Origin: Chlamydiota bacterium
Lineage (GTDB): Bacteria > Chlamydiota > Chlamydiia > Chlamydiales > JAAZZY01
Length of the DNA: 64,000 bases
NCBI GenBank assembly: GCA_022601345.1
Contig: JAJACU010000039.1
Span: 25,741 to 89,740 of the forward strand
Reading direction: 5' to 3'
The position numbers and the translations under genes are program-made. The notes beneath the pieces are model-generated. The model worked only from the letters and a program-made list of their open reading frames with translations. It was not told where the DNA came from and did no database searches. Shown piece by piece: positions 12,481 to 31,172 of this stretch; positions within the stretch are counted from its first letter, which is position 1, and every line of letters starts with the position of its first letter.

Positions 12481-13267
12481 AGATATCCTTTATCAAACAC
12501 ATCAAGGGATTGCAAAAATTACAATTAACAGACCTCATGTCCACAATGCGTTTCGCCCTAAAACTGTAGACGAAATGTCACAAGCTTTAACTCATGCTCG
12601 TAACGATTCATCTGTAGGTGTTGTTATCTTGTGTGGTGCAGGTAGCAGAGCCTTTTGCTCGGGTGGGGATCAAAAAATTCGTGGGCATGCTGGCTACAGT
12701 GACCATGAAGATGGAGCAGAACGCCTTAATGTTTTAGATTTTCAAAGACAAATGCGCACAATGCCTAAACCTATTATAGCAATGGTTGCAGGATATGCAA
12801 TTGGTGGCGGGCATATTCTCCACCTTATTGCAGATCTCACAATCGCAGCAGACAATGCTGTTTTTGGACAAACAGGCCCAAAAGTTGGATCATTTGATGG
12901 AGGCCTTGGAGCTTCCTATATGGCTAGAATAATTGGCCAAAAGAAAGCTCGTGAAATGTGGTTTTTATGCAGGCAATACAATGCTCAAGAAGCTCTCGAT
13001 ATGGGACTTGTCAATACCGTCGTACCTCTTGAGGACTTAGAAACAGAAACCATTAAATGGTGCAAAGAAATTCTCCAACACTCTCCAATTGCTCTAAGAT
13101 GTTTAAAAGCTGGCCTAAATGCGGATTGCGATGGACAAATTGGTTTGCAAGAACTTGCCGGAAATGCAACTATGCTTTTTTACATGACAGAAGAAGGGCA
13201 AGAAGGTCGCAACGCCTTTGTTGAAAAAAGGCAGCCTGATTTCAGCTCTTTTCAAAGACAACCTTAA
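12449..13267 (+). CDS. menB: 1,4-dihydroxy-2-naphthoyl-CoA synthase
   Basis: Crotonase fold with MenB-typical sequence ([36 protein letters not shown]). The track ORF starts at 12407. I prefer ATG 12449 (MIDWKQP...), which matches normal MenB N-termini. Confidence 0.92.
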
Positions 13268-13284
13268 ACATTGAGGACGTTAAC

Positions 13285-14175
13285 ATGAAAACAAAACCAA
13301 TAGCATTAAACCCATGGTTAATCGCAACGCGCCCAAAAACGTTAACAGCTGGGCTCTCTCCTGTTGTTTTAGGGATGAGCTTTGCCCTTAGTGAAGGTTT
13401 TTTTAATTTTAGAATTTTAATAATGATTCTTATTGCAACTGTCGCTTTGCAAATTGCAACAAATCTAACAAACGATTACTTTGATTTCATAAAGGGAATT
13501 GATGACAAAGACCGTGTTGGCTTTACCAAAGTTTTAGTTGAAGGGTTAATATCAGTTCAATCTATGCGTAAAGCTATTTTTGCTGTTTTCGCAGTTGCAG
13601 GACTTGCTTCTACCTACCTGATTATCAAGGGAGGTTGGCCAATTGCAATTATTGCAATCACAGCTATTTTATTTGCTGTGCTCTACACTGCTGGACCATT
13701 TCCATTAGGACACATTGGTTTAGCAGACCCTGTTGAATTTATTTATTTTGGCCCAATTGCAGTTAGCGGAACTTATTATTTACTGGCCCATTCATTACCT
13801 CTATATGTCATGATAGGCGGTTGCATACCTGGCTTTTTATCCCTTGCAATACTTACTGTTGACAATCTTCGTGATTATGAAACAGATAAAGCAAAAGGCA
13901 AAAAATCTCTTTGCGTTCGCTTTGGTAAAAAATTTGCTCAATTTGAATATTATCTTTGTGTGCTCTGTGGCTTTTTAACTCCCATAGTTTTAGTCGCCAT
14001 TACAAGGAAACATTTTCTTTCTTTAAGTTGCTTTATTATGCTCCCATTGTATAAAACCTGTCTAGACGCTGTAAGAGACAACCACAGTGCAGATGACCTT
14101 AACAAAGCGCTCAAGCAAACAGCAGCGAGTCTGCTTTTGTTTACGCTTATTTTTTCAACAGGATGGCTTTTGTGA
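13285..14175 (+). CDS. menA: 1,4-dihydroxy-2-naphthoate polyprenyltransferase
   Basis: UbiA-family membrane prenyltransferase (NDYFDFIKGID, DNLRDYETD), about 8-9 TM. Confidence 0.9.
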   Translation: MKTKPIALNPWLIATRPKTLTAGLSPVVLGMSFALSEGFFNFRILIMILIATVALQIATNLTNDYFDFIKGIDDKDRVGFTKVLVEGLISVQSMRKAIFAVFAVAGLASTYLIIKGGWPIAIIAITAILFAVLYTAGPFPLGHIGLADPVEFIYFGPIAVSGTYYLLAHSLPLYVMIGGCIPGFLSLAILTVDNLRDYETDKAKGKKSLCVRFGKKFAQFEYYLCVLCGFLTPIVLVAITRKHFLSLSCFIMLPLYKTCLDAVRDNHSADDLNKALKQTAASLLLFTLIFSTGWLL

Positions 14176-15236
14176 AGATCCAAAATCTTCAACTCTACTC
14201 ATATCATTTAAAATTAAAACAACCTCTATCGTTGAAAGGATCCCTTTTAGATCATAGAGAGGGGTTGATTTTAAAAGTTACTTGTGAGCACGGACAATCG
14301 ATTCAAACAGATATCGCACCCCTTTTAAATTTTCACACTGAATCTATTTCAAGCATTTTAAAAATTTTTCCACAAATCAAAAAAGCTCTTACTAAAAGCT
14401 TTTGGTCTTTAAAGCTTCTTTTAAATTCAGAGAACCTTTTATCCCAAAATCTATCATACAAAAAATATCCCTCACTGTATTTTGCGATTGAATTTGCGCT
14501 TCTATGCCATTTAATGCCAAAATTAGATCACTTCCAAGATATTAAAATTAACGCGCTTCTATCTGGAGCTGACAGTGAGCTAGAATTGAAAGCTCCTCTT
14601 ATTAGAGATTATGAATCAGTGAAACTCAAGGCAGGGCCTAGAAATGCTTATGAGCTTTTATCACTCATTGAAAAAATTCAACCCCACCTTAGGCCTCAAC
14701 AAAAGCTACGCATTGACTTTAACAGATCATGGAAGCTTACAGAGCTTCTCGAATTTTGTAAGTATTTCCCAATTGAGCTTTGTGAATACCTTGAAGAACC
14801 TTTAGAAAATCCACTTGAGCTTTTACATTTCTCAAGCCACTGCGCTCATCCTATTGCATTTGATGAATCACTGCTCGACACTTCACTTGAATTTTTACTT
14901 ACAATTCCCACCAAGCGTGCATTTATTATAAAGCCGACTCTTATCGGATCGCTCCAAAAAGTCAACTACTTATATTCTAAGGCAAGGCTACACAACCTTC
15001 AATTCATATTAACCAGTGCATTTGAAAGCGGCATTGGACACTTAATGGTTGCTCAACTTGCACACTACCTAGCCATTGAAGACCCTATTGGTTTAGACAC
15101 CTATCAATGGCTAGAAAATGATGTCTTAACAAAGCCCCTAGAGTTTAACAAAGGCAAGCTCGATTTAAAAGAGCAGCATATCTTAAACCCCTACATCAAC
15201 TGGAAAGCTCTTACTTCTTGCTATGAAAATGCTTAA
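14163..15236 (+). CDS. menC: o-succinylbenzoate synthase
   Basis: Enolase-superfamily size and pattern (VKLK, RIDFNRSW, EEP, FDES), placed between menA and menE. Overlaps menA by 13 nt. Confidence 0.75.
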   Translation: MAFVKIQNLQLYSYHLKLKQPLSLKGSLLDHREGLILKVTCEHGQSIQTDIAPLLNFHTESISSILKIFPQIKKALTKSFWSLKLLLNSENLLSQNLSYKKYPSLYFAIEFALLCHLMPKLDHFQDIKINALLSGADSELELKAPLIRDYESVKLKAGPRNAYELLSLIEKIQPHLRPQQKLRIDFNRSWKLTELLEFCKYFPIELCEYLEEPLENPLELLHFSSHCAHPIAFDESLLDTSLEFLLTIPTKRAFIIKPTLIGSLQKVNYLYSKARLHNLQFILTSAFESGIGHLMVAQLAHYLAIEDPIGLDTYQWLENDVLTKPLEFNKGKLDLKEQHILNPYINWKALTSCYENA

Positions 15237-16539
15237 ATGCCAACTCTACAATAATGCTCTAAACTACCCCAACCAAAGTTTTATTGCAGGAGCTCAGACT
15301 TTCACATATTTAGAGTTTGAAACCTACACACAACAAATTCAAGCGCAACTTAGCGTCTATAGTCCTGGCCAAGTCATTGCTTCATCTTGCAAAAACCCTT
15401 CATTTTTTATAGCGCTTTTGATTGCAGCTATGCGACAAAAACTAATTGTTTTTCCAATAAACTTTCGCTTACCTCCAGAAGAAATCGACAAAAGAGTTCT
15501 AGAAGTTAATGCAGTAGGTATATTTGAGAAAGCTATTGCACTTGATGCGATGTTCAAACCAAGCTTTGAAGTAGCACCTACATACTCTCAAAGAGCTCCT
15601 GCAACTTATTTAATGACCTCAGGCAGCAGCCAATCTCCAAAAATATGTGTTCACTCCATAGAAAATCATTATTGCAATGCTAGAGCTTCTAATGAAGTTT
15701 TAAACTTTTCACAGGGCGATGGATGGCTGCTTTCTCTTCCACTTTTTCATGTTAGCGGCATCAGCTTAATTTTCCGCTCTTTACTTGCAAAAGCAACACT
15801 TATTCTACCTTCTAACGACACCTCACATGATCTTTTAACACAAAAAATAACTCACCTATCTTGCGTCAATGCGCAACTGCAAAAACTTCTAGACAACCCC
15901 AAGCTTTTAAAGCCCCTTAAAGTTATTTTGTTGGGAGGAAGTGCTCCTTCTTTAGAGTTAGTAAATAAATCAAAAGACTTAGGCCTTGCTCTGCACGTAA
16001 CCTATGGGTTAACAGAGATGGCTTCACAAGTGGCAACTTCTGAGCAAAGAGGCCTAGAACTACAAATATTAAATTGTGCAAATGTTCAAATTGATTTTAA
16101 CAGTCAAATTCTTGTAAGAGGGCCTGCTCTTTTTCTAGGATATTTATTTGATGGAAAAGTTTTGTCCTCTACAAATAAGGATGGCTGGTTTGAGACAGGT
16201 GATATAGGAGAGCTAAACACAAAATACCTAAGTGTAATAGGTAGACGAGACAATCTTTTCATCAGCGGCGGTGAAAATATTCAACCCGAAGAAATAGAGG
16301 CTCTCCTTCAAGAATACCCAGATATAACTGAAGCTATTGTGGTGGCAAAACCTCATCCTAAATTTGGACACATTCCAGCAGCATTTATAAAAGCAAAAGA
16401 AAATTTCAATGCAGGTAGCCTAAAAAAATTTTTGGAAAGCAAACTGCCCAAGTATAAAATTCCTAAACTTTACCTTCCTTTAAACTACAAAACTTTAAAA
16501 CCTTGCAGAAAACTTCTTAAAAAGTTAGTTGAAAGCTAA
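15223..16539 (+). CDS. menE: o-succinylbenzoate-CoA ligase
   Basis: Adenylate-forming enzyme motifs (YLMTSGSSQSPK, YGLTE, GDIG, GRRDNLFISGGENI). Overlaps menC by 14 nt. Confidence 0.8.
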   Translation: MKMLKCQLYNNALNYPNQSFIAGAQTFTYLEFETYTQQIQAQLSVYSPGQVIASSCKNPSFFIALLIAAMRQKLIVFPINFRLPPEEIDKRVLEVNAVGIFEKAIALDAMFKPSFEVAPTYSQRAPATYLMTSGSSQSPKICVHSIENHYCNARASNEVLNFSQGDGWLLSLPLFHVSGISLIFRSLLAKATLILPSNDTSHDLLTQKITHLSCVNAQLQKLLDNPKLLKPLKVILLGGSAPSLELVNKSKDLGLALHVTYGLTEMASQVATSEQRGLELQILNCANVQIDFNSQILVRGPALFLGYLFDGKVLSSTNKDGWFETGDIGELNTKYLSVIGRRDNLFISGGENIQPEEIEALLQEYPDITEAIVVAKPHPKFGHIPAAFIKAKENFNAGSLKKFLESKLPKYKIPKLYLPLNYKTLKPCRKLLKKLVES

Positions 16540-16627
16540 ATATTTTCAACTCATTGATTTTCAAAATAATCAGAAAATTGTTAGAATGATTCCTTATTAG
16601 GAAAACACCGTAGCATAAAATTTTAAA

Positions 16628-16999
16628 ATGACAACTTATAGTAATGATTTAAGCCCGAGATCTCAAAATCTTTTAAGCATGCAATGGTTAAAAAATCCTA
16701 GAGATAAGGATCCTGCAGAGGTTAGTGTTACATATGATGGTAACAGTAGTTTTGAAATTAAATGCACAAGTGGGCATAAAACATTTAAAATCAATCTTCA
16801 ACGAAATCCCACATCGAGAACCGATCTAGATAGAATCTATGCCCAGTTCGAAGGTTCAATGGAGATCAGCGCCGGACCACTGTTTGCAGAAGAAAATGTC
16901 CGTGTAAGAGAAGGTGAGACTTCGTTTCAGCTCAAAATATTTACAGTAGGCAGATCGTCTGATGAACCTATGGTTTTATTCTTTGAAAAAGACTCTTAA
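16628..16999 (+). CDS. hypothetical protein
   Basis: 123-aa ORF with no recognisable motif. Its 3' end overlaps the convergent thioesterase gene by 4 nt. Confidence 0.4.
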   Translation: MTTYSNDLSPRSQNLLSMQWLKNPRDKDPAEVSVTYDGNSSFEIKCTSGHKTFKINLQRNPTSRTDLDRIYAQFEGSMEISAGPLFAEENVRVREGETSFQLKIFTVGRSSDEPMVLFFEKDS

Positions 17000-17415
17000 A
17001 TAGAATTATTAGAATATTTTTTTAGTAATTCTCTAAAATTGCTAGGTATAACCTTCTTCTCAAGTTTAGAACCGCCAATTGTCGCATGTACAACTTTTGC
17101 TTGGGCCACTTCATTTTGAGCGACCAAAAGCTTGTAACACATTGTAAAAGAACTTTCCCCTACTTCACCAACTGTAAGCTCAATATCTACTTCATCATCT
17201 AGAAAAATCAAACCCTTATAGTCTGCCTCAGCATGCACAACAGGAAAAACAAAATCCCTTTTTTCAAGCCTGTCTTTGATGCCAAATCCAAAATCTCTTA
17301 AAAATCCAGCAAAGGCATCATGAATAAAATAAAATAGCTGCCCGTAGAATATGATTTTTGCTCCATCTAAGTGATAGAGCTCAATGCGTTTTTTGTAGGT
17401 ATAGACTTGATTCAT
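16996..17415 (-). CDS. hotdog-fold acyl-CoA thioesterase (4HBT/YbgC-like); candidate DHNA-CoA thioesterase
   Basis: 139 aa with a 4HBT-type N-terminal pattern (RIELYHLDGAKIIFYGQLFYFIHDAFAGFL). Convergent with the end of the men operon. Confidence 0.65.
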   Translation of the reverse strand: MNQVYTYKKRIELYHLDGAKIIFYGQLFYFIHDAFAGFLRDFGFGIKDRLEKRDFVFPVVHAEADYKGLIFLDDEVDIELTVGEVGESSFTMCYKLLVAQNEVAQAKVVHATIGGSKLEKKVIPSNFRELLKKYSNNSI

Positions 17416-20275: not shown

Positions 20276-20926
20276 TTAAACTTTCTCTTTAATTGTGATA
20301 GAAAATAAGCGGCTCATTAGGCTTGAATCACCTAATATTTTAGATAAGCACTTTTCACGGATACTTTTTTCACAATCAACTCGTCTGTTGACATCAGCCA
20401 TAACATCCTCAACAGAAAGCTTTATCTTACCACAATGAGTAACATCAGTAGTTGTCCCACAGTAGTCTTTTACCAGCATGGCGGCCCGAGTAGGTGATTT
20501 TGTAATATATTCAAATGCCTCAACTGGAAAATCTTTAGAGAACAGTTTTTCTAAGCTCTTTGCTCCATGTTGCTTATCAGGAAAGTCCCTTCCTTTACCA
20601 TTGACGTTATAAAAAAAGAGGTTAGCAAGATTTACAACTCCACAGTCATGTTTGTACGTATATGCAGACCCTCCTGTATCTGTATAAGCAACACAAGTAG
20701 TCGCAGGAAATACATTACTTGAAAGACTTAATTTGCCATCTCCCAAAACTATCCCAACAGAGAGTGCTGAAACTGCAGCTGTAAGGCCTAGTCGCAAAGT
20801 TCCTTCTGCAAATTGAGTTCCTGCTTGTTTATATTCTTTGCTTCCAACGCTTTTCACTGAACTACCTAAGTAGCCAAGCCCTGTAAAATTTGATAAATTA
20901 TTCAATGTTCCTAATACAGCTGGCAT
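20276..20926 (-). CDS. hypothetical Cys-rich protein (orphan)
   Basis: The track ORF extends to 21007. I prefer ATG 20926 (MPAVLGTLNN...), which is preceded by AAAGGAGG (complement of 20931..20938). One hydrophobic segment and 8 Cys. No family recognised. Confidence 0.55.
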   Translation of the reverse strand: MPAVLGTLNNLSNFTGLGYLGSSVKSVGSKEYKQAGTQFAEGTLRLGLTAAVSALSVGIVLGDGKLSLSSNVFPATTCVAYTDTGGSAYTYKHDCGVVNLANLFFYNVNGKGRDFPDKQHGAKSLEKLFSKDFPVEAFEYITKSPTRAAMLVKDYCGTTTDVTHCGKIKLSVEDVMADVNRRVDCEKSIREKCLSKILGDSSLMSRLFSITIKEKV

Positions 20927-21051
20927 GTTGCCTCCTTTTAGCTTTTTTGGATGAATGATAACCGATATTATACAATAATAAGTGTTAAGATTCAGTAAAA
21001 ACAACATGTTCTTTAGAAAAAAATAGTCTAAATAGTGTTATAAAAAATATT

Positions 21052-22065
21052 TTAAACACTGACAAGCTGCTTGTTTACAGGCAATATGGAGCCCATAATT
21101 TTGGAAAAATCTTCTAAAGAAATTGTTTGAGCGGCATCTGAGAGAGCTTTGTCGGGCTCAGGGTGGACTTCTATCATTAACCCATCAGCTCCAGCAGCTA
21201 TGGCAGCCTTAGACATGGGAGCTACAAGAGATCGAATCCCCGTTCCATGGCTAGGGTCAGCAATGACAGGCAGATGGCTTAAGCTTTTCAAAATAGGAAT
21301 TGCAGCGATATCTAAAGTATTTCTAGTATAGGGTTCAAAAGTGCGTATACCTCTTTCACATAAGATAACCCGCTCATTTCCACCGCTGAGAATGTATTCA
21401 GCCGACATTAGAAATTCTTGGTACGTGGCAGAAAGCCCCCTTTTAAGCAGTATAGGCTTTGAAGTCTTACCTAGTTTTTTAAGTAGACTAAAGTTTTGCA
21501 TATTGCGCGCACCAACCTGCAAAATATCAACATACTCTTCAATTAAAGGTAAATCTTCAGCATCCATAATTTCAGATACAGTTAGAAGCTTGTATTGAGC
21601 CGCTGCCTTTTGCATGAGTTTGAGCCCTTCTTTACCCAACCCTTGAAATGAATAGGGTGACGATCGAGGTTTAAAAGCTCCTCCGCGCAAAATTTTGGCT
21701 CCAGCTGAAGACACCGCCTCTGCAATGTTAAAAATTTGTTCTTCCCCCTCTATTGAACAAGGGCCGGCCATAACACTAAAATGTCCTTGCCCAAAAGTGA
21801 CATCTTCAATTTGAAAAGTTTTTGATTTTTCGCGCAGTTCTTTACCTGCGAGTTTAAACGATTGTTTAAAAGAGCTAACGTTCTCTACATAGGGCAAATT
21901 TTTAAATTGGTTTATATCGACTTTAGAATCAGAGCCACTAATAATAGCAATATCAGTCCTCTCATCAGTTTTATGAATGCTATAGTTAAATCCCATCCAT
22001 TCTAATTTGTCTGCAAGTGCACCGAGCTGTTTAGGATCAATATCTTTTGCAAGTTCTAAAATCAT
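21052..22065 (-). CDS. aroG: 3-deoxy-7-phosphoheptulonate (DAHP) synthase, type I-beta, with an N-terminal regulatory domain
   Basis: KDSA/DAHPS I-beta core (MAGPCSIE, GAFKPRSSPYSFQGLG, KRG, DPSHG) preceded by a domain of about 75 aa, as in Thermotoga-type DAHPS. Confidence 0.85.
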   Translation of the reverse strand: MILELAKDIDPKQLGALADKLEWMGFNYSIHKTDERTDIAIISGSDSKVDINQFKNLPYVENVSSFKQSFKLAGKELREKSKTFQIEDVTFGQGHFSVMAGPCSIEGEEQIFNIAEAVSSAGAKILRGGAFKPRSSPYSFQGLGKEGLKLMQKAAAQYKLLTVSEIMDAEDLPLIEEYVDILQVGARNMQNFSLLKKLGKTSKPILLKRGLSATYQEFLMSAEYILSGGNERVILCERGIRTFEPYTRNTLDIAAIPILKSLSHLPVIADPSHGTGIRSLVAPMSKAAIAAGADGLMIEVHPEPDKALSDAAQTISLEDFSKIMGSILPVNKQLVSV

Positions 22066-22170
22066 AGTTTTCCTTTTTAAAGTTTTATGCTGCTTACTTT
22101 ATTTCAATTTGATCATGCAAAAAAAAGCAGATGGTTCAAAGTAAACACTCCCTCATATTTTGGAAAGCAC

Positions 22171-22776
22171 TTATTCGTGTGATTGAGCAATAAATTCTCT
22201 TATCTTTGTAGCATCCTTCTTAACATTGCTCGAGTTGCACACACCCGATGCAACATCTACACCATTGGGTTTTATTATTTTAATGGCTTCTTGTACGTTA
22301 CTAGGAGTGAGCCCCCCTGCAAGCAAAAAAGCTCCTTGTTCTATGCGTTTAAACTGGTTCCAGTCAAAAGATTGACCCGAGCCAAATGTTGCACAATCAT
22401 AAATTAAAAAATCTCTTTTATCTAAAGTATAGGTAAGAGGCTCATAACTTCCATCGAAGTTAACCTCTACAACTAAAAGCTTTCTAAATTTTTCTAAAGG
22501 CTCTAGCTCCTTTTTAGATGCAGGGGCAACAACTTGCACCCATTCAAGCTCTAAGTCTTTAGCTTTTTTTGCAACTTGCATCAAATCATCCTCCAAAAAA
22601 ACACCTACGACGTGAATAGGATGATTTTGAAGCTCTTGAATTAAACTGATTGCTCTTTCATCGTCAAGATACCTTTTAGTGTCCCTATGAAAAATAATGC
22701 CTATAAAATCTGCGCCCGCTCCCACAGCTGCTTTAGCATCTTCTAAATTGGTAATCCCACAAATTTTAACCAACAT
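22171..22776 (-). CDS. trpF: phosphoribosylanthranilate isomerase
   Basis: MLVKICGITNLEDAKAAVGAGADFIGIIF..., LAGGLTPSNV, GVDVASGV. Confidence 0.88.
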   Translation of the reverse strand: MLVKICGITNLEDAKAAVGAGADFIGIIFHRDTKRYLDDERAISLIQELQNHPIHVVGVFLEDDLMQVAKKAKDLELEWVQVVAPASKKELEPLEKFRKLLVVEVNFDGSYEPLTYTLDKRDFLIYDCATFGSGQSFDWNQFKRIEQGAFLLAGGLTPSNVQEAIKIIKPNGVDVASGVCNSSNVKKDATKIREFIAQSHE

Positions 22777-23580
22777 CTATATGTTCCCTATTTCTGAAAT
22801 AATCCCTCTAGGATCTTTAGCATTGACTAGCATTTCTCCAATCAAGACACCATCATAGCCACATTCGTGCATGGCTCGAGCATGCTCAACATTCAAGATG
22901 CCTGACTCTGCAATTTTAATAATACCTTTTGGAATTTTTGGCGCTAAATTTTTAGCGATATCTAAATTTACTTCTCGAGTTTTTAAATCCCTGCTACAAA
23001 CTCCAATAATTGAAGCTTTTTCCTCAAGAGCTCTGTTGAGTTCTTCCTCATTATGAACTTCAACAAGTGCATCGACTCCAATATATTCAGCAATATCTAG
23101 AAACTCTCTAAGACGATCTTTCACCACTGCAACAATCAACAAGACTGCTGATGCTCCTGCTTTTTTGCTTTGGGCTATTTGATAAGGATCAATAATAAAA
23201 TCTTTACTCAAAATTGGGCATGGGTGAAGAGTTGTAAACCCCTGTGATATATGCATAAGATCGTGCATGCTGCCACCAAAATAATCTTCATCCGTTAAAA
23301 CAGAAATGGCTGCTGCGCCAGCTTTACTGTACAGGTGTGAGAGCTTCACTAGATGATCTATTGATGAAGCCTTTCTTTTTAAAAGGTCTTCTCGTTTAAT
23401 CTCTGCAATTACTGATAAGCCTGCAACTTTAAGAGCATCCCGAAAGTGGTGTCTATTAGGCTTACGGCGGCTTAAAATTTTTTCTAAAGGTTTTGCCTCA
23501 TCCATTTTTTCAATTTCGATGAGGATATCAACTTTTTTTTGCTTATTGGCAACGATCTCATTTAGCTCATTATTCATCAT
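22777..23580 (-). CDS. trpC: indole-3-glycerol-phosphate synthase
   Basis: VIAEIKR, ISVLTDEDYFGG, ILSKDFIIDPYQI, LVEVH, ESGI. The stop abuts the trpF start. Confidence 0.88.
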   Translation of the reverse strand: MMNNELNEIVANKQKKVDILIEIEKMDEAKPLEKILSRRKPNRHHFRDALKVAGLSVIAEIKREDLLKRKASSIDHLVKLSHLYSKAGAAAISVLTDEDYFGGSMHDLMHISQGFTTLHPCPILSKDFIIDPYQIAQSKKAGASAVLLIVAVVKDRLREFLDIAEYIGVDALVEVHNEEELNRALEEKASIIGVCSRDLKTREVNLDIAKNLAPKIPKGIIKIAESGILNVEHARAMHECGYDGVLIGEMLVNAKDPRGIISEIGNI

Positions 23581-23681
23581 ATGTCCTCGAGGTGTTTTAC
23601 CTTTTTAGTATAGTTTACCAAGCTCTACTACTTTCGTGCATTTTTTTGTTTATATTTTTTATAGATTTGCTTAAGCAATTC

Positions 23682-24257
23682 TCAAATAATATGTGCAAAC
23701 TTCAAAAAATTCGAAATAAGTTCTTCACCTTGTTCTGAAAGTATTGACTCGGGATGAAATTGCACACCCCACATTGGGTAATGGAGATGTCTTAAAGCCA
23801 TAATTAGATCGTCTTTAGAAAGTGCCTCTACAATTAATTCTTTAGGTAATTTTTTTGAGTCTACTACGAGTGAATGATAGCGAGCTGCATTGAAAGGCAG
23901 TTTTATTTTTTCAAAAATTCCTTGCCTCCTATGAAAGATCAAAGCCGATTTTCCATGCACACATTTTGTAGCTCTGATAACTGTTCCGCCATAAGCATAA
24001 GCCATTGCTTGCATGCCTAAGCAAACCCCCAAGATAGGAGTTGTTGGACCAAGTTTTTTTATAAGATCTACACAGATTCCAGCATTTTCTGGTGTCCCAG
24101 GCCCAGGAGAGATTACAATAGCCTTGGGGTTCATTTTTGCAATTTGATCAACACTTTCATGATCATTTCTAATGACTTTAATGTTTGAATAAATTCTAGC
24201 TAACAGCTGATAAAGGTTATAGGTAAAGCTGTCGTAGTTATCAATTAAGACAATCAT
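23682..24257 (-). CDS. trpG: anthranilate synthase component II (glutamine amidotransferase; could also serve as PabA)
   Basis: MIVLIDNYDSFTYNLYQ, ISPGPG, GVCLGMQ, FHPES. 191 aa, so it is not fused to TrpD. Confidence 0.88.
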   Translation of the reverse strand: MIVLIDNYDSFTYNLYQLLARIYSNIKVIRNDHESVDQIAKMNPKAIVISPGPGTPENAGICVDLIKKLGPTTPILGVCLGMQAMAYAYGGTVIRATKCVHGKSALIFHRRQGIFEKIKLPFNAARYHSLVVDSKKLPKELIVEALSKDDLIMALRHLHYPMWGVQFHPESILSEQGEELISNFLKFAHII

Positions 24258-25729
24258 AAATCCCCTCGATCAGCTTTGTTAATAGCCTCAAGTATAGTTT
24301 TTGCTTTTATGGCAGTTTCCAAAACCTTTTCCTCAGGTTTTGAATCACAGACAATTCCAGCGCCCACTCGCACACTTGCCATACCATCTTTAATGAGTGC
24401 CATACCAACAGCAATGCAGCTGTCTAAATTCCCAAGGTTATCCATGTAACAAATATTCCCACCGTAAATTCCTCTACGAGAACTTTCTATTTCATCAATA
24501 ATTTCCATAGCCCTAATTTTGTGGGCACCGGCAAAAGCGGCAGAAGGCATAAAAGCTTTCATTACATCCAGTGCATCGCATTCAGGTTTAATGCGCCCCG
24601 TTACTCGAGAGGTTATATACATTACAAGTGAGAGCCTTTGAATTGACTTAAAGTCTTTTACATTGACACTTTCAAGCGCACAAATTGAGGCCATATCATT
24701 TCTTGCGAGATCAAGAAGCATCACATGCTTAGCAATTTCTTTTTCATTCGATAAAAGCTGTTTCTCAAAAAAATGGTCCTCTTGACCCACACCTCTGGGA
24801 ACAATACCTGTAATTGGCAGGGCCTCGACTTTTCCATTTTTCAATGATGCAAAATGCTCTTGAGAAGAGCCTGTTATCACGTAATCTTCATTATCCAAAT
24901 AAAACATGAAAGGTGAAGGATTCTTTCTCCTAAGTACACGAAAGACATCCAGTGGATCTGACTTAAACTCTCTATAGAATGTGCGCGAAGCAGCTAATTG
25001 AAAAATGTCTCCTGAAAAAATATACTCTTGGCTTTTTTTAACCATTTTTTGGTAGCTCTCATCATCACAGTCAGTGTTAAAGTCTGCATTTAATGACGGC
25101 TTGCTTTCCAAATCAATTAATGTTTGCTCAGAATATGAAAATATATCGTTTAATAATTCTTTTAAATGTGACACCCCTTTTTGATATTGATTTTCTTCAC
25201 AACCTTTTCTATCAGGAATATTAATCAAAGTCATTCGCTCGAAGAGATGATCAAAGACAATGATTGTTTCGTAAAACCCAAAGTATATATCTGGCAGCTG
25301 ATCTGGGTCTTCATGTCTAGAAGGAATTTTTTCATATAACCTCACAGCATCATACCCCATAAAACCTACAGCCCCTCCTGCAAGTGGAGGTAAATCAAAA
25401 TTTTGGATGATCCTGTTTTGTTGCATGATTTTTCGTATCACCGATTTAAAATCTGAATCTACAAGTTGCTTTTTATGCTTGTGTATAAGATGAGTTTTAT
25501 CCCCTTTTACTTCGACGCTTATTTTAGGGTTAAATCCAACAAATGAATAGCGTCCAATATCTTGAACGCATTCTCCAGATTCCAATATAAAGCCTTTTTT
25601 ATACTTATGTCTCAGGGCATAAAAAACTCGGATAGGACTTACGAGATCTGATGACAATTCTATATAAACCGGTACCTTCAAAGGTTGATCGCATAGACTT
25701 TTGTACTCATCCAAAGACAATACCTTCAT
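24254..25729 (-). CDS. trpE: anthranilate synthase component I
   Basis: ILESGE...IGRYSF, then the chorismate-binding core (LFPSAAF-like PSAAFAGAHK, RGIYGG, IVCDS). The track start is 25741. ATG 25729 forms an ATGA overlap with the aroC stop. ATGA-type overlap with trpG at 24254..24257. Confidence 0.86.
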   Translation of the reverse strand: MKVLSLDEYKSLCDQPLKVPVYIELSSDLVSPIRVFYALRHKYKKGFILESGECVQDIGRYSFVGFNPKISVEVKGDKTHLIHKHKKQLVDSDFKSVIRKIMQQNRIIQNFDLPPLAGGAVGFMGYDAVRLYEKIPSRHEDPDQLPDIYFGFYETIIVFDHLFERMTLINIPDRKGCEENQYQKGVSHLKELLNDIFSYSEQTLIDLESKPSLNADFNTDCDDESYQKMVKKSQEYIFSGDIFQLAASRTFYREFKSDPLDVFRVLRRKNPSPFMFYLDNEDYVITGSSQEHFASLKNGKVEALPITGIVPRGVGQEDHFFEKQLLSNEKEIAKHVMLLDLARNDMASICALESVNVKDFKSIQRLSLVMYITSRVTGRIKPECDALDVMKAFMPSAAFAGAHKIRAMEIIDEIESSRRGIYGGNICYMDNLGNLDSCIAVGMALIKDGMASVRVGAGIVCDSKPEEKVLETAIKAKTILEAINKADRGDL

Positions 25730-26817
25730 AATTGAGCACACCTATTCATCAATAGAGCATCGGCTAAAACAAGAGCAGTCATTGCTTCTACAATAGGAAC
25801 GGCCCGAATAGCAACACATGGGTCATGGCGAGATCCTTTGGGCAAAGAAAAGCTTTTACTCTCTCCTTTTAAATTGACAGTCTTTTGAGGTTTCATGATG
25901 CTCGATGTCGGTTTGAAAGCAACCCTAAAGATAAGCGGCATCCCGGTCGATATTCCACCAAGAGTGCCTCCTGCATGGTTGGTTGCTGATTTAATTTTTC
26001 TACCTCTCATAATAAAAGCATCGTTGTGCTCAGAGCCTTTCATCCTAGCTGCATTGAAGCCCTCTCCAAACTCTATTCCACGAGTTGCTGGAAGAGTCAT
26101 CATCGCTTTAGCAAGGTTTGCTTCTAGCTTTTCATATATTGGGTCTCCTAAACCCACTGGCAATGAATCTACTTTAGTCTCAATAATAGCACCAAGAGAG
26201 TCCCCATCTTTTTTGGCTTTCAAGATTTGGCCCATCATAAGTTTTGATTGTTTAAAGTCTGGGCAATATATTGGGCTTGTGCTTATTTTTTTTTGGAGAG
26301 TTTTAAAAGTTGCGTTGGGCGTTTGTGCATCTATGTTTCCGATAGAATGGATGTAGGCCAGTGGATTAATTTTGTGATGCTTTAGAAACTTTTTTGCAAC
26401 AGCACCTGCTGCGACTCTAGCAGCTGTTTCTCTTGCAGAGGCTCTTCCGCCCCCTCTATAATCAAAAATGCCATATTTTTTTATGTAGCTAAAGTTAGCA
26501 TGGCCTGGGCGAAGCAAGTTTTTAATAGGCTCATATTTGCTAGAGTCTGCATCTTTATTAAAGATTACAATAGCAATTGGCGCTCCTGTTGTCTTCCCTT
26601 GAAAAATTCCAGAGAGGATTTGCGCTTTGTCTTTTTCTTTTCTCGGTGAAGTAAAAGGAGTTTTACCAGGAGCTCTTTTATCCAGTTCCTTTTGAATGTC
26701 TTCTACCTCAAGAGGAAGAAGCGCTGGACATCCATCAATGACAACTCCGATGGCAGCCCCATGAGACTCTCCAAACGTTGTTATTCTAAAGATATTACCA
26801 AAGCTATTTTGCGCCAT
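25726..26817 (-). CDS. aroC: chorismate synthase
   Basis: FGNIFRITTFGESHG, RPGHANFSY, GGGRASARETA, GGISTG, RHDPC. Confidence 0.92.
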   Translation of the reverse strand: MAQNSFGNIFRITTFGESHGAAIGVVIDGCPALLPLEVEDIQKELDKRAPGKTPFTSPRKEKDKAQILSGIFQGKTTGAPIAIVIFNKDADSSKYEPIKNLLRPGHANFSYIKKYGIFDYRGGGRASARETAARVAAGAVAKKFLKHHKINPLAYIHSIGNIDAQTPNATFKTLQKKISTSPIYCPDFKQSKLMMGQILKAKKDGDSLGAIIETKVDSLPVGLGDPIYEKLEANLAKAMMTLPATRGIEFGEGFNAARMKGSEHNDAFIMRGRKIKSATNHAGGTLGGISTGMPLIFRVAFKPTSSIMKPQKTVNLKGESKSFSLPKGSRHDPCVAIRAVPIVEAMTALVLADALLMNRCAQL

Positions 26818-27229
26818 AAAAGAGGGCCGAGGTTATAAAAATTAATTTTTTATAACGTAATTGCGAATTTTGTGTAAGAGAGAATAAATTAAGACTCACT
26901 AACCTAGATATAATCTTTTTATTCCATGAAAACCAATTTGAAGAAGTAACCTAGGCTCTTTTACTAAGTTTTGCAATATAAACCTCAACCATAAAACCCA
27001 ATTAGGTTCCTTGCATAGGAAGCTTCTAAAAGCACCCTCAATTTGCAAGATGCCTCTTCATTCTTGTTTTACAATACATGCCCAGTTTTCGAGATATTCA
27101 TTTTAATTTAAGATCAACTATCTAAATACAAGAGGCTTAAAAAAAATTGCAACTTTTATAGTATTTTATCAGCGATCTTTGTAGAAGGAGCTTTAGAGAC
27201 GTTATTTTAATAGGATAAGGAGTAAATCA

Positions 27230-28459
27230 ATGGAGACCACGCAATCTGGTGATCTTTTTGACAAATGCCATAACCAAGAAGGCATGTTTTTAGATGTTCG
27301 ATCTGACAATAATTACTATGTACAACCTATATTAGAAGGGCCACTTGGTACACGCATGCTCTTCAACAATAAGCCTATGATTGTTTGGTCTATTAATGAC
27401 TATTTAGGACTATCAGAACACCCTAAGCCAAGAAAGGTTGCTCATGAAATACTCGAAAAGTATGGAACCTCTTATCCAATGGGAGCAAGGTTGATGAGTG
27501 GACTTACAAAGTACCATGAAAACTTTGAAGCAAAACTTGCTGATTTTTGCAATAAAGAGTCTTCTATTCTATTTAATTATGGATACTTAGGAGTTATGGG
27601 TACAATAACGAGCTTAGTGGGTAAAAATGACACGGTTATCATTGACCATGACGCCCATGCCTGCATTGTTGATGGTGCGAAACTAGCAGCAAACAAGCGC
27701 AGCCAATTTAGAGTCTTCAAGCACAACAATATGGAACACCTTGAGCAAATATTGAAATCTACTCGTGCACGCTCAAACGGAGGAATTCTAATTGTTACTG
27801 ATGGTGTCTATGGGATGAGCGGAGAACTCGCTCCCCTTCCTGAAATATGCGCTTTAAAAGAGAAATACAACGCCAGATTACTGGTCGACGATGCCCACGG
27901 AATAGGCATAATGGGTAAAACGGGCCGAGGAGTGGGTGAACACTTTGGGCTTCAAGATAAAGTAGACTTATATTTTTCTACATTTGCAAAATGTTTTGCA
28001 GGAATTGGTGGCTTTGTTGCAGGAGACTCTGCAGTTATTGAGCACATTAAATGGAATGCACGCCCAGTCATCTTTGCAAAAAATTTACCCTTAATATATA
28101 CAGAAACAATGTCAACAACTCTCGACGTTATGCTCCAAGAGCCTGAACGCAGGGATAAGCTTTGGACAATTGCAAAACAATTACAAAAACGCCTTGTAGA
28201 AGAAGGTTTTGATATTGGCAGCACGGGATCACCGATCACACCTGTCCATATGCTTACTGGAGACCTAGATAAAACGAAAGAGTTTATCAAAACGATGAGA
28301 GAAGATCACAACATCTTCTGCTCCGGGGTAATGTACCCTGTAGTGCCTCCAGGGGTTTTACTACTTAGGCTTGTTCCAACATGCAAGCACACTATGGAAG
28401 AAGTAGAACAAACTGTTGAGGCTCTAATTGCAACAAGAAAGAAGGTATTAAAACTATAA
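27230..28459 (+). CDS. alpha-oxoamine synthase family PLP enzyme, serine-palmitoyltransferase-like
   Basis: AAGGAG sits 7 nt upstream. NDYLGL, DHDAHACIVDG, GVYGMSGELAPLPEI, LVDDAHGIG, and the PLP-Lys motif STFAKCFAGIGGFVAG. By eye it is closer to SPT (GVYSMxGDxAPL, GTFSKSxGxxGGFV) than to Kbl or BioF, but the subfamily is not provable without a search. Confidence 0.8.
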   Translation: METTQSGDLFDKCHNQEGMFLDVRSDNNYYVQPILEGPLGTRMLFNNKPMIVWSINDYLGLSEHPKPRKVAHEILEKYGTSYPMGARLMSGLTKYHENFEAKLADFCNKESSILFNYGYLGVMGTITSLVGKNDTVIIDHDAHACIVDGAKLAANKRSQFRVFKHNNMEHLEQILKSTRARSNGGILIVTDGVYGMSGELAPLPEICALKEKYNARLLVDDAHGIGIMGKTGRGVGEHFGLQDKVDLYFSTFAKCFAGIGGFVAGDSAVIEHIKWNARPVIFAKNLPLIYTETMSTTLDVMLQEPERRDKLWTIAKQLQKRLVEEGFDIGSTGSPITPVHMLTGDLDKTKEFIKTMREDHNIFCSGVMYPVVPPGVLLLRLVPTCKHTMEEVEQTVEALIATRKKVLKL

Positions 28460-28469
28460 AAGGAGCCCC

Positions 28470-29675
28470 ATGGTATATTCAGCTATTGATCATTTAAAGT
28501 GCAGTAAATGTGAAAAAAAATACTCTGCAAATAACCTGATTAATATCTGTGACTGCGGCTCTCCATTATTCGTTTGTTACAATTTAGATCTTGTTAAAGA
28601 ATCAACAAGTCCACAAGAAATCTCTAAAAGAGATGTCAATATGTGGCGCTACCATGAGCTTTTACCTGTAAAAGATCCAAAAAATGTTGTCTCAATTGGA
28701 GAAGGGTTTTCTCCATTACTATCCTTAGATAACCTTAAGAAGGATCTAGGGCTGAACAATCTTCATATGAAATATGAAGGCTCAAATGTCGGTGGGACAT
28801 TTAAGGCTAGAGGAGCTTCTTGTGGTCTATCTAAAGCAAAAGAGCTTGGCGCTGAAAAAATAGCCATTGCAACAAACGGAAATGCTGGCGAAGCCTGGGC
28901 TATGTATGCAGCAAGAGGCTCTATTCCTATTTCAGTAATCATGCCTATTGATGCTCAAGATACAACCAAGATGATCTGTAAAGCTGTTGGCGCTGAAACA
29001 TTCCTCATTAATGGAATGATTTCAGATGGTGGTAAATACATTGATACATACAAAATTGAGAATAGATGGTTTGACGTTTCTACCTTAAAAGAGCCCTACC
29101 GATTAGAAGGTAAAAAGACAATTACCTTTGAAGTTATTGAGCAACTAGGCTGGACTTTCCCTGATGTTATGATCTTCCCAACTGGGGGAGGAATCTCTAT
29201 TGCTGCAGCATACAAAGCTTGTTGCGAATTAAAAGAGCTCGGCTGGGTGTCAGGACAATTACCGCGTCTAATTGCTGTCCAAGCTGAGGGCTGCGCTCCA
29301 CTTGAAAAAGCCTTTTTAGCCAAACAAATGACTACTGATTTTTTTGAAGGAGCTCACACTAAAGCAAATGGTCTAAGGGTTCCAAAACCATTTTGTGACT
29401 ATATGGTTTTAGACGCTATATACAAAACAAAGGGTTGCGCAATCTCGGTTCCTGATGAAGAAATGGTAGAAAGCATTTCGCGCATTGGAGGAAAAGAAGG
29501 TTTATTTTTATGCCCTGAAGCTGGCGCTTGCGTCTCAGGAATAGAAAAGCTAAAAAATAACAACTTGATTAGCGCAGATGACAATATTGTTATTTTGGGA
29601 AGCGGAAGCGGACTTAAGTATAAAGACATCATTAAAACGAATGATTTGGAAGTGCTTGATGCAGTTAGCAAATAA
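28470..29675 (+). CDS. threonine-synthase-like fold-type II PLP enzyme (function uncertain; candidate amino-acid head-group synthase)
   Basis: AGGAG sits 4 nt upstream, and the ORF starts 10 nt after the previous stop. N-terminal Cys ribbon (CSKC...CDC), WRYHELLP, a PLP-Lys motif GGTFKARGA (Lys codon 28803..28805), and ATNGNAG. The Lys is followed by Ala, where the ThrC enzymes I remember have Asp (SFKD). Confidence 0.75.
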   Translation: MVYSAIDHLKCSKCEKKYSANNLINICDCGSPLFVCYNLDLVKESTSPQEISKRDVNMWRYHELLPVKDPKNVVSIGEGFSPLLSLDNLKKDLGLNNLHMKYEGSNVGGTFKARGASCGLSKAKELGAEKIAIATNGNAGEAWAMYAARGSIPISVIMPIDAQDTTKMICKAVGAETFLINGMISDGGKYIDTYKIENRWFDVSTLKEPYRLEGKKTITFEVIEQLGWTFPDVMIFPTGGGISIAAAYKACCELKELGWVSGQLPRLIAVQAEGCAPLEKAFLAKQMTTDFFEGAHTKANGLRVPKPFCDYMVLDAIYKTKGCAISVPDEEMVESISRIGGKEGLFLCPEAGACVSGIEKLKNNNLISADDNIVILGSGSGLKYKDIIKTNDLEVLDAVSK

Positions 29676-30504
29676 GTTTGATCAAAAGGTAATTTGGATA
29701 ACAGGTGCATCAGGAGGGCTTGGTAGAGAGCTTGCTATTGCACTTGCTCAATACAATGTGCGAATTATCCTTTCTTCACGCCAAGAAGATAAGCTAAGAG
29801 AAACGCAAAGGCTTGCAAATCTTCCTCCCGAAAGATGCTTGATTCTTCCAATGGACCTTACTTCTATTAAAGAAGAACAAATTAAAATGATTGGAGATCG
29901 CATTCTTCTTAAATTTGGAAAATTAGATTTACTTATTCACAATGCTTCGCTTTCACAACGCTCAATGGCTCACCAAACAGTTGATGAAGTCGACCGAAAA
30001 ATTATGGAAACCAATTTTTTTGGTCCAGTGCGCCTTACCAAATATATTTTACCCACACTACTTAAATCCAGCGATCCAAAAATTATTGTTATAAGTAGTC
30101 TTGCAGGTAAATTTGGAGTTCCTTTGCGCTCAACTTATTGTGCTGCTAAACATGCTCTGCATGGTTTTTTCGATGCTATGAAAATGGAATTGCACAAAAA
30201 AATAAAAGTTACTTTCTTTGTTTTAGGCGGAGTAAAAACAGAGTCTGCAATGCACGCTCTTAATGCAGACGGTACCATTCACAATCAGCTTGATCTTTGG
30301 CATGAGCGTAATATGCCTGCTGATAAGTGTGCTAAAGAAATTATCCAAAAGCTTCATAGCAACCGTGATGAATGGGTTATTGGACGAGTTGAAAAGTTTG
30401 GACTTTGGTTAAAGTTGCACTTCCCTACTCTTCACAAGAAAGTTTTATTTAGTTTTTATGCAAAAGATAAAGAAAATCTCGATCAAGAGCCTTCAATAGA
30501 TTGA
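29659..30504 (+). CDS. classical short-chain dehydrogenase/reductase (3-keto reductase candidate)
   Basis: TGASGGLGRELA (cofactor motif), NASL, and catalytic S...YCAAK. The track ORF starts at 29578. The ATG at 29659 (or 29641) gives a normal SDR N-terminus and overlaps the upstream stop (29673..29675). Confidence 0.85.
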   Translation: MQLANKFDQKVIWITGASGGLGRELAIALAQYNVRIILSSRQEDKLRETQRLANLPPERCLILPMDLTSIKEEQIKMIGDRILLKFGKLDLLIHNASLSQRSMAHQTVDEVDRKIMETNFFGPVRLTKYILPTLLKSSDPKIIVISSLAGKFGVPLRSTYCAAKHALHGFFDAMKMELHKKIKVTFFVLGGVKTESAMHALNADGTIHNQLDLWHERNMPADKCAKEIIQKLHSNRDEWVIGRVEKFGLWLKLHFPTLHKKVLFSFYAKDKENLDQEPSID

Positions 30505-31172
30505 TTTTCAACATCTGCAACAGCCGTCACTTCTTCCTCTGAATTTTTTTCCTTTACTCCACCTAAAAGATAAGTCACCACATAGGTGTTGGCAACCCAG
30601 AAATAGCCAATAGGAACAATAATAATAAAATAGTATTTACCAAGAACCTCCATAAATGGAGCTGGCTCTTTAAGATAAAGAATATTTTGATTTAAGAATC
30701 TGTTATAGAAATACATGACGCCGCAATAGGCTAAGAACCCAAAAACAGCTGTATAGCATGACCATCTAGAAATACGCCTGCCTTCAACACGAATAAAATA
30801 AATTGACATTACAAGTGGAGCAATATGCTTGATCCAGTAAGCTACCCAAATAACTGGTAGATCTTTGATCATCAACGAATATGGATTTTTTGGCATTAAG
30901 CAGATAAAGAAACACCCTATCCAAGTAAAGAAAAAGTAGAGATCAAAAACTTTTTGCTTAAACTTGAACAGCAAAAAAATGTTCATAAAAACAGCAACGT
31001 TGCACAGCCAAGCAATCTGAGCTGGTTCTCTAAATATGATGTCATAGACGCAAAGCATCTGAGAAGCTATAAGAGAGCCTCCCAGGATCCAATAGATGCG
31101 GACTTTGCGTATTGATAAAACAAGTGTAAGAACTGCATAACCAAGTACAATTGCAACAGGTAGGTAGCCCAT
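30483..31172 (-). CDS. 7-TM integral membrane protein of unknown function
   Basis: 229 aa with seven hydrophobic helices and an acidic C-terminal tail. GGAG lies upstream of the start. Its 3' end overlaps the 3' end of the SDR gene by 22 nt (convergent). Confidence 0.6.
   Translation of the reverse strand: MGYLPVAIVLGYAVLTLVLSIRKVRIYWILGGSLIASQMLCVYDIIFREPAQIAWLCNVAVFMNIFLLFKFKQKVFDLYFFFTWIGCFFICLMPKNPYSLMIKDLPVIWVAYWIKHIAPLVMSIYFIRVEGRRISRWSCYTAVFGFLAYCGVMYFYNRFLNQNILYLKEPAPFMEVLGKYYFIIIVPIGYFWVANTYVVTYLLGGVKEKNSEEEVTAVADVENQSIEGS

Follow-up and report, generated by a model that had tools for sequence, protein, structure and literature searches.

Chlamydiae are textbook takers of host sphingolipids, not makers of sphingoid lipids, and in Caulobacter sphingolipids are made by a Spt-CerS-CerR pathway. 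The capnine pathway of Bacteroidota comprises a cysteate synthase (CapA or Cys), a cysteate-C-fatty-acyltransferase (CapB, SulA or CFAT) and a 3-ketocapnine reductase (CapC or KCR) (PMC9304779, PMC11211663). Sulfonolipids count as a trait of Bacteroidota, and capnine-type bases, sulfur analogues of sphingosine, have so far been reported almost exclusively from that phylum; in a survey of human-gut genomes, 99.99% of the predicted sulfonolipid producers belonged to it. Among the striking effects that sulfonolipids have on eukaryotes, rosette induction in choanoflagellates, TLR4 signalling and gliding motility have been described (PMC3463246, PMC11525784). The locus described here is a three-gene unit of a member of the Chlamydiota (JAAZZY01; assembly GCA_022601345.1), and lies within positions 25,741-89,740 (forward) of contig JAJACU010000039.1, a stretch of 64,000 nt that is referred to below as the window. 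The unit encodes an alpha-oxoamine synthase (AOS; gene 1), a ThrC-like pyridoxal phosphate (PLP) enzyme (gene 2) and a classical short-chain dehydrogenase/reductase (SDR; gene 3), and a convergent gene for a TMEM164-like membrane protein adjoins it. The three genes very probably form one amino-lipid pathway, and sequence comparisons give a moderate preference to the view that the locus is a module for a capnine-type (sulfono-sphingoid) lipid with a cysteate head group. On this view it would be a variant of the CapA/CapB/CapC pathway of Bacteroidota, though not an orthologous one. No paper was found in the literature that ties Chlamydiae to sulfonolipid or serine palmitoyltransferase (SPT)-type synthesis, or threonine-synthase-like enzymes to alpha-oxoamine synthases.

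In the proposed pathway, gene 2 would most likely make L-cysteate from O-phospho-L-serine and sulfite by beta-replacement. Gene 1, for which the family is established and the substrate predicted, would condense this amino acid with a fatty acyl-acyl carrier protein (ACP) in a decarboxylative reaction to give 3-ketocapnine, and gene 3 would yield capnine by an NAD(P)H-dependent reduction of that ketone. As a speculative fourth step, the TMEM164-like protein might act as a transacylase and acylate the base to the mature sulfonolipid. An initial annotation of the window had already put forward the triad as a candidate sphingoid or sulfonolipid pathway, and this reading is supported in silico by the clade of gene 1, the placement of gene 2 and the co-conservation of the three genes.

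Gene 1 within the CapB/SulA clade

The product of gene 1 matched Pfam PF00155 (Aminotran_1_2) with 152.7 bits. Against the Protein Data Bank (PDB), it scored 402 bits with 28eh, which is named 'Cysteate-C-fatty acyltransferase', and 368 bits with 7u7h, the SulA of Alistipes. Scores with other classes were 260 bits for the SPT of Sphingobacterium, at most 217 for Kbl/BioF-like enzymes, at most 205 for enzymes named Kbl, about 175 for 5-aminolevulinate synthase and 112 for CqsA, with one more score of 163 for a structure that is not a cysteate acyltransferase. By BLASTP, gene 1 is 47% identical to 28eh, 45% to SulA and 34% to SPT (SmSPT), whereas 66% of positions agree between the two validated enzymes, 28eh and SulA. 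Three NCBIfam SPT models returned scores under their cut-offs (326.6 against 640, 268.8 against 500 and 212 against 670), and those of the Kbl (298.4; cut-off 460), BioF (295.9; 426) and CqsA (197.4; 428) models were far under theirs.

In an alignment with SulA, the catalytic residues N56, H143, K254 (the PLP lysine) and R380 of gene 1 correspond to N53, H140, K251 and R376, and gene 1 retains every SulA active-site residue that was checked. A further lysine, K284, lies in the motif FAKNLP 30 residues past K254 and corresponds to SulA Lys281, which was put forward in the SulA paper as a discriminator from Spt; at this place SmSPT has FSASM, with Ala, and the Thermus Kbl/BioF-type enzyme is without the lysine of the SulA FAK motif. 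Among the best 120 homologues of gene 1, all 120 have lysine at this position. Across 200 bootstrap replicates of a neighbour-joining tree, CapB, SulA and the other lysine-bearing sequences were separated as one clade from SPT and Kbl every time (200/200). The chlamydial AOS sequences formed a clade of their own in 200/200, which the AOS of the non-chlamydial contig L003 joined in 192/200. On scores, residues and tree, gene 1 is a member of the CapB/SulA (cysteate-C-fatty-acyltransferase) clade and not an SPT, Kbl, BioF or CqsA. The initial annotation had recognised gene 1 as an AOS and likened it by eye to SPT more than to Kbl or BioF; scores and tree place it with CapB/SulA (402/368 bits against 260 for SPT; clade support 200/200).

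Gene 2, its partners and the head group

Gene 2 passes the cut-off of NCBIfam NF006050/PRK08197 'threonine synthase' (500.6; cut-off 303), where 'threonine synthase' is the name of the model and has no verified function behind it. It falls under the cut-offs of TIGR00260 thrC (147.8; 167.1), TIGR03844 archaeal-type cysteate synthase (70.7; 324.9) and NF053679, the CapA cysteate synthase (34.7; 600). Among solved structures it comes nearest to ThrC enzymes, with a score of only 138 bits. Compared with canonical ThrC, gene 2 has FKARG for FKDRG, TNGNA for STGNT, GGGIS for GNAGN and ST..EPYR in place of NS..NPxR, and carries an additional N-terminal Cys ribbon in the alignment. The canonical loops FKDRG, STGNT, NS..NPxR and GNAGN are those that we take, from Thermus ThrC structures, to have substrate- and phosphate-binding roles. 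In a tree, the family of gene 2 occupies a long branch apart from the ThrC of B. subtilis and Aquifex, and the gene is accordingly not nested within canonical threonine synthases, a nesting that the initial annotation had counted among the signs against its proposal. These comparisons set gene 2 apart from canonical threonine synthases and from archaeal-type cysteate synthases alike and place it in a deep ThrC-like family; its likeness to the cysteate synthase of Methanosarcinales and to CapA is functional and not by descent. It is predicted to be a head-group amino-acid synthase, most likely for cysteate, with the substrate and nucleophile read entirely from its context.

The subgroup of gene 2 within PRK08197 is marked by the signature N[PV]GGTFKARG. 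The initial annotation correctly saw a ThrC-like enzyme with Ala after the PLP lysine, but this Ala proved to be nothing special and was rejected as a specificity marker, since FKARG occurs in 119/120 of the best homologues, including stand-alone Firmicutes genes. The residue three positions before the lysine (NPGG versus NPGD) marked linkage to an AOS only in part: an AOS was missing from all of about 10 NPGD loci, but also from the NPGG loci L017, L018, L030, L031 and L033, and NPGG and NPGD sequences are intermixed in the tree.

Three non-chlamydial relatives of gene 1 (L035, L036 and L037), each about 51-52% identical to it and all lysine-bearing, were sampled for their surroundings. In L035, a metagenome-assembled genome (MAG) of Spirochaetia (6658-10075), and in L036 (6727-9245), the start of the AOS gene overlaps the stop of a TIGR03844 cysteate synthase gene (460 and 454 bits, respectively; cut-off 325). 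In L035 an SDR gene follows the AOS gene and a YeiH-type putative sulfate exporter is encoded nearby. Seven more AOS/cysteate-synthase pairs were indicated by contigs of the same size in both homologue lists (190934, 172484, 136182, 20820, 11901, 8929 and 3545). The AOSs partnered with the gene 2 type were monophyletic in 0/200 bootstrap replicates and were interspersed with the TIGR03844-partnered AOSs, so that the type of partner does not track the AOS tree, which points to partner swapping around one constant substrate. The validated cysteate enzymes lie at the base of the tree and operons of the sister clade are coupled to cysteate synthase, so that phylogenetic bracketing makes cysteate the most parsimonious substrate of gene 1; with cysteate as that substrate and a cysteate synthase in the same slot of the sister operons, cysteate supply is in turn the function that parsimony favours for gene 2. 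The Spirochaetia operons suggest that sulfonolipid synthesis occurs well outside Bacteroidota, and no paper was found in the literature on cysteate synthase-AOS-SDR operons of Spirochaetia and other MAGs.

The order AOS, ThrC-like, SDR is kept in all eight related chlamydial loci that were compared (L001/L011, L007-L010, L012, L013 and L021; seven genome assemblies and one metagenome contig), and a convergent TMEM164-like gene lies beside the triad in 7/7 of those that reach that side, with the aro genes next on contigs that are long enough. One of the MAGs with the module is assembly GCA_964612505.1. Co-conservation, on which the initial annotation had staked its proposal, was therefore found in all related chlamydial loci and extends beyond Chlamydiae. 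Within the window, the ATG of gene 1 is preceded at 7 nt by AAGGAG, genes 1 and 2 are separated by a 10-nt spacer (28460-28469; AAGGAGCCCC), and the end of gene 2 overlaps the start of gene 3 by 17 nt, which confirms the arrangement of three packed plus-strand genes first annotated. The short overlap of genes 2 and 3 recurs in orthologous loci (11190 vs 11203), and gene 3 has a second in-frame ATG upstream, at 29578. The motifs quoted in the initial annotation (LVDDAHGIG, STFAK, WRYHELLP, GGTFKARGA, TGASGGLG and YCAAK) were all recovered.

In some chlamydial relatives, the interval from aroC to the AOS gene contains inserted ankyrin-repeat genes (L008, 7208-8101; L021, 5647-6573) or an inserted RHS-repeat gene (L007, 4881-6782). 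Such ankyrin and RHS insertions are typical effector-like genes, and the inserted genes were rejected as pathway genes because they encode ankyrin-repeat, RHS or uncharacterised proteins. The constancy of the module, set against these insertions and the variable flanking trp genes, indicates a module under selection in eroding surroundings. A pattern scan for the gene 2 subgroup over one genome per species (185,579 species) returned only 13 loci, seven in chlamydial MAGs and the rest in cyanobacteria, one member of Steroidobacteraceae and one planctomycete; no named cultured chlamydia was among the hits. Ten further loci of the subgroup came from a metagenome scan.

Outside Chlamydiae, a pair of the gene 1 and gene 2 types occurs in four unrelated contigs with differing flanks (L003, L034, L004 and L028; Table 1), and a glyoxalase/VOC-fold protein of 342-383 aa accompanies the pair in L003 (11207-12235) and L034 (4078-5229). 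Other members of the gene 2 subgroup, in other phyla, sit in fatty-acyl or nonribosomal peptide synthetase (NRPS) clusters. The cyanobacterial cluster L017 (7250-16506) encodes a GlsB-like glycine-lipid N-acyltransferase, the ThrC-like protein, a fatty acyl-AMP ligase (FAAL)-ACP-condensation protein and a major facilitator superfamily (MFS) transporter with EF-hands, and looks like an N-acyl lipoamino acid pathway with an unusual head group. L031 (1559-18167) is an NRPS cluster with two WelO5-like halogenases, an asparagine-synthase-like gene and the ThrC-like gene, which is adjoined by a PF01177 racemase; the top NCBIfam match of this racemase is the cysteate racemase CuyB, at 99 bits and below the cut-off.

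The cyanobacterial NPGD type is never linked to an AOS, and in three loci (L016, 5167-11185; L026, 2222-9000; L027, 991-3673) it directly follows a group II PLP amino-acid decarboxylase, for which the top match, a weak one, is 2,4-diaminobutyrate decarboxylase. Upstream of the pair are cytochrome P450 genes and an OlsC/LpxO-like hydroxylase gene (L016) or a polyketide synthase gene (L026), and such loci may lead, by decarboxylation, to a product such as taurine, homotaurine or a diamine. Stand-alone cyanobacterial ThrC-like genes are preceded by an open reading frame (ORF) of about 107-123 aa (L020, 9482-9805; L006, 7437-7772; L015, 9352-9723; L022, 7303-7626), the product of which starts with MAPVTAPTKPQ and includes WKELLAARHSASFW. 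This ORF was considered as a MetO and rejected, as it encodes a helical conserved protein without a Gly-Gly tail or family match and is not of the ThiS/MoaD type. The Geobacillus member of PRK08197 (L005, 8001-10226) stands alone beside a small fragment of an energy-coupling factor (ECF) transporter and a sulfite-oxidase-family (Oxidored_molyb) gene, not beside hom/thrB.

Gene 3, which had been annotated as a classical SDR and proved to be one, matched Pfam adh_short with 146 bits. It scored 211.9 on NCBIfam PRK06181, just short of the cut-off of 215, and 95.2 on KdsR NF049977 (cut-off 400), and no orthology to KdsR or to the validated KCR/CapC enzymes was found. Its nearest relatives in the PDB are 11-beta-hydroxysteroid dehydrogenase 1 structures, reductases of lipophilic ketones. 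Published 3-ketocapnine reductase activity in Bacteroidota comes from several unrelated, promiscuous and unclustered SDRs, and because validated KCRs are polyphyletic and promiscuous, the non-orthology of gene 3 says little and its operon position is the main argument. Gene 3 is a generic lipid-ketone-type SDR and, from that position and the known pathway logic, a predicted 3-keto reductase. The TMEM164-like protein passes Pfam PF14808 (54.8; cut-off 25) and is under the cut-off of TIGR02206 (45.1; 75). The TMEM164/ATGY superfamily consists of membrane transacylases such as human TMEM164 and Bacillus LhaT, which N-acetylates lipoproteins, and this makes the protein a candidate for the acylation of the long-chain base, a role that is speculative.

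Several findings weigh against the proposed capnine-type pathway with a cysteate head group. Gene 1 branches outside the CapB and SulA pair and is only 45-47% identical to its members, where PMC11525784 takes as CFATs those enzymes that nest within the validated ones or are similar to them by 50% or more, and because SulA K281A still binds cysteate, a role of the lysine in specificity is not proven. Gene 2 passes a model named for threonine synthase and has no active-site motif in common with the TIGR03844 enzymes of L035 and L036. Its closest non-chlamydial homologues are cyanobacterial (52-57% identical) and mostly without an adjacent AOS, the AOS of L037 is unclustered with no PLP partner nearby, and gene 3 shares only 27-28% identity with the SDRs of L034 and L004. 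Within the 64-kb window no hom, thrB, serA/serC, sulfite source (cysH), ACP or acyl-ACP synthetase gene was seen, and for serA/serC, the sulfite source, ACP and the synthetase this absence also counts on that side, as does the probable kinship of gene 2 with MetM that is taken up next.

A pathway of the same architecture with another head group is a good deal less probable than one with cysteate, yet it accounts for much of the remaining doubt. The amino acid would be L-homocysteate (from O-phosphohomoserine and sulfite), homocysteine, threonine or 2,4-diaminobutyrate, and the product a new lipid class, 'homocapnine' or a non-serine sphingoid base. MetM of Streptomyces albulus, which is cited in the GapMind 2026 preprint and in PMC12172450, is a MetO-thiocarboxylate-dependent homocysteine synthase that acts on O-phosphohomoserine by gamma-replacement and a ThrC homologue 'often misannotated as such'. 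A cyanobacterial 'ThrC' that belongs to another lineage than canonical ThrC has 51.6% identity with MetM. On this basis the family of gene 2 is probably that of MetM, and MetM-like use of O-phosphohomoserine would favour a gamma-substituted product such as homocysteate. The lack of motifs shared with TIGR03844 cysteate synthases fits such a product, as do the sister NPGD subgroup coupled to decarboxylases with their weak 2,4-diaminobutyrate match and the clade of chlamydial and L003 AOSs (96% bootstrap), which stands apart from the validated and the TIGR03844-partnered enzymes. No small ORF for a MetO-like carrier was present inside the operon, and no S-adenosylmethionine (SAM) riboswitch was found with Rfam. 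Against a different head group are the phylogenetic bracketing of gene 1, with validated enzymes basal and a sister clade in cysteate-synthase operons, the unchanged SulA active-site residues, and the failure of the AOSs with gene 2-type partners to cluster (0/200), which would be expected of them if they shared another substrate.

It is improbable that gene 2 is a housekeeping threonine or homocysteine synthase that lies by chance between an AOS and an SDR with no joint pathway. Such a role would agree with its pass over the PRK08197 cut-off, with the many stand-alone members of the family (Geobacillus L005 and the cyanobacterial L006 and L014) and with the weak formation of threonine in vitro by the cyanobacterial 'ThrC' related to the gene 2 family (PMC12172450). 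Against it stand the gene spacing suited to translational coupling (the 10-nt gap and 17-nt overlap), the AOS/ThrC-like adjacency that persists across eight chlamydial loci and, amid differing flanks, in four unrelated contigs, and the cysteate synthase that fills the same slot in the sister operons. Gene 2 is moreover under the TIGR00260 cut-off and without the FKDRG, STGNT and GNAGN loops, and hom and thrB are not in the window, where the sole GHMP kinase is IspE. An ordinary small-molecule pathway, either Kbl with threonine dehydrogenase (threonine to glycine) or an alpha-hydroxyketone autoinducer synthase of the CqsA/LqsA type together with a reductase, is very improbable, for although gene 1 has sub-threshold scores on the Kbl (298), BioF (296) and CqsA (197) models and many of its relatives are labelled 'glycine C-acetyltransferase' by JGI, those scores are far below the cut-offs, the PDB scores favour cysteate acyltransferase (402) over named Kbl (at most 205) and CqsA (112), gene 1 has the FAK lysine of SulA that the Thermus Kbl/BioF-type enzyme lacks, and gene 3 is an 11-beta-HSD1-like classical SDR and not a GalE-like threonine dehydrogenase.

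Coordinates and flanking genes

The features of the operon and of the four non-chlamydial contigs that carry the AOS/ThrC-like pair are collected in Table 1.

Table 1. Features of the chlamydial operon (window coordinates) and gene content of the non-chlamydial contigs with an AOS/ThrC-like pair
Sequence	Feature	Coordinates	Strand	Details
Window	Upstream intergenic region	26818..27229	.	Divergent, aroC (minus) versus gene 1; contains gene 1 ribosome-binding site AAGGAG (27217-27222)
Window	Gene 1, alpha-oxoamine synthase (AOS), CapB/SulA clade	27230..28459	+	409 aa; Pfam Aminotran_1_2
Window	Gene 2, ThrC-like fold-type II PLP enzyme, N-terminal Cys ribbon	28470..29675	+	401 aa; Pfam PALP; NCBIfam PRK08197
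Window	Gene 3, classical SDR	29659..30504	+	281 aa; Pfam adh_short; TGASGGLG, YCAAK
Window	TMEM164-like integral membrane acyltransferase (predicted)	30483..31172	-	Pfam PF14808; convergent with gene 3
L003	AOS, ThrC-like, glyoxalase-fold protein, TMEM164-like			TMEM164-like protein 30% identical to that of the window, downstream of the pair
L034	AOS, ThrC-like, SDR			Genes overlapping
L004	Regulator, ThrC-like, AOS, fatty-acid desaturase, SDR, Rieske oxygenase, MFS transporter
L028	FAAL-ACP-AOS (CapB/SulA-like) fusion, then ThrC-like, Rce1-like membrane protease	1059-4373		Fusion of 1104 aa

The triad was first described as interrupting a minus-strand aromatic amino-acid cluster. The trp/aroC and aroK-aroA-aroDE-aroB flanks are as then described, but the minus-strand TMEM164-like gene between gene 3 and aroK had been missed; the 3' ends of this gene and of gene 3 share 22 nt. 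The minus-strand flank on the aroC side comprises rimO, a 243-aa ORF, the genes for DAHP synthase, trpF, trpC, trpG and trpE, and aroC, and that on the other side aroK, aroA, aroDE, aroB and mgtE. The 243-aa ORF (20276-21007), between rimO and the DAHP synthase gene, is without a Pfam or NCBIfam match. A complete menaquinone operon is present at 8061-17415 (ubiE/menG, menF, menD, menH, menB, menA, menC and menE, with a 4HBT thioesterase gene) and, as it adjoins the aro and trp genes, the region amounts to a chorismate-centred supercluster of about 28 kb. In base composition the triad does not look foreign, as its GC content (39.1%) is near that of the window (37.2%). No Rfam family or riboswitch and no convincing sigma-70 promoter was matched in the 26818-27229 region, and a riboswitch, promoter or terminator bounding the unit was sought with nothing significant found.

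The trp cluster (21052-26817, minus) has trpE-trpG-trpC-trpF next to the DAHP synthase gene and is without trpD, which by tblastn is absent throughout the 64 kb; the gap between trpG and trpC is only about 100 nt. Neither trpA nor trpB was seen in or beside the trp cluster or among the annotated ORFs. In relative L008, trpD is found at the corresponding place (2888-3898), and L001 is without trpE, trpC and trpF. Erosion of the tryptophan genes seems to be under way in this chlamydial lineage.

Comparison with known systems

If the proposed pathway is correct, some intracellular symbionts or pathogens would make their own analogue of sphingosine-1-phosphate. The locus would point to a third, independently recruited synthase of cysteate or a cysteate-like amino acid, in a family annotated wholesale as 'threonine synthase', and puts forward a TMEM164-type transacylase as a candidate for the acylation step, which is still missing; the Spirochaetia operons suggest that sulfonolipid synthesis is much wider than current surveys indicate. 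A bolder and rather doubtful extension is that the N[PV]GGTFKARG subgroup consists of unrecognised head-group amino-acid synthases (sulfite-dependent or with another beta/gamma-replacement on phosphoserine or phosphohomoserine) that serve lipid and NRPS pathways in several phyla, and that the chlamydial product is a new sulfono-sphingoid lipid, for example a homocysteate-derived 'homocapnine' N-acylated by a TMEM164-type enzyme. This would be a self-made mimic of sphingosine-1-phosphate or ceramide-1-phosphate with which an obligate intracellular bacterium would act on the eukaryotic host.

With the bacterial SPT pathway (Sphingobacterium and Sphingomonas SPT), the proposed route would share AOS condensation, keto reduction and N-acylation, but gene 1 is 34% identical to SmSPT, has Lys for Ala and lies well under the cut-offs of three NCBIfam SPT models. 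Gene 2 has the fold-type II PLP architecture, PLP lysine and PYRLEG arginine motif of canonical ThrC (TIGR00260; PDB 6cgq, 2zsj and 1uim) and differs from it in identity (about 30-35%, 138 bits), in its extra Cys ribbon and in its changed loops. It is probably of the same deep ThrC-like family as MetM, which shows that enzymes of this kind can join a phosphorylated hydroxy-amino acid with a sulfur nucleophile; unlike MetM, gene 2 has no accompanying gene for a MetO-like carrier and is embedded in a predicted lipid operon.

The L035 and L036 operons have an AOS of the same clade (about 51% identical), a PLP enzyme of the ThrC superfamily coupled to the AOS and, in L035, an SDR downstream. Their PLP partner is a cysteate synthase of the Methanosarcinales type (460 bits in L035) whereas the chlamydial partner is of the PRK08197 type (70.7 bits on the same model), and the gene order is cysteate synthase-AOS-SDR in the Spirochaetia-type operon and AOS-ThrC-like-SDR in Chlamydiae. 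With the capnine pathway of Bacteroidota, the chlamydial locus has in common the three-step logic, a true CapB/SulA homologue in gene 1 and an SDR reductase. The CapA of Bacteroidota is CysK/CBS-like and unrelated to gene 2 (34.7 bits; cut-off 600), the genes are scattered in Chryseobacterium and Alistipes but united in one operon in the chlamydial locus, and the latter, unlike the Bacteroidota pathway, has a TMEM164-like acyltransferase gene attached and belongs to the phylum Chlamydiota. What is new relative to the capnine pathway is therefore the type of head-group synthase, the operonic layout, the added TMEM164-like gene and the phylum.

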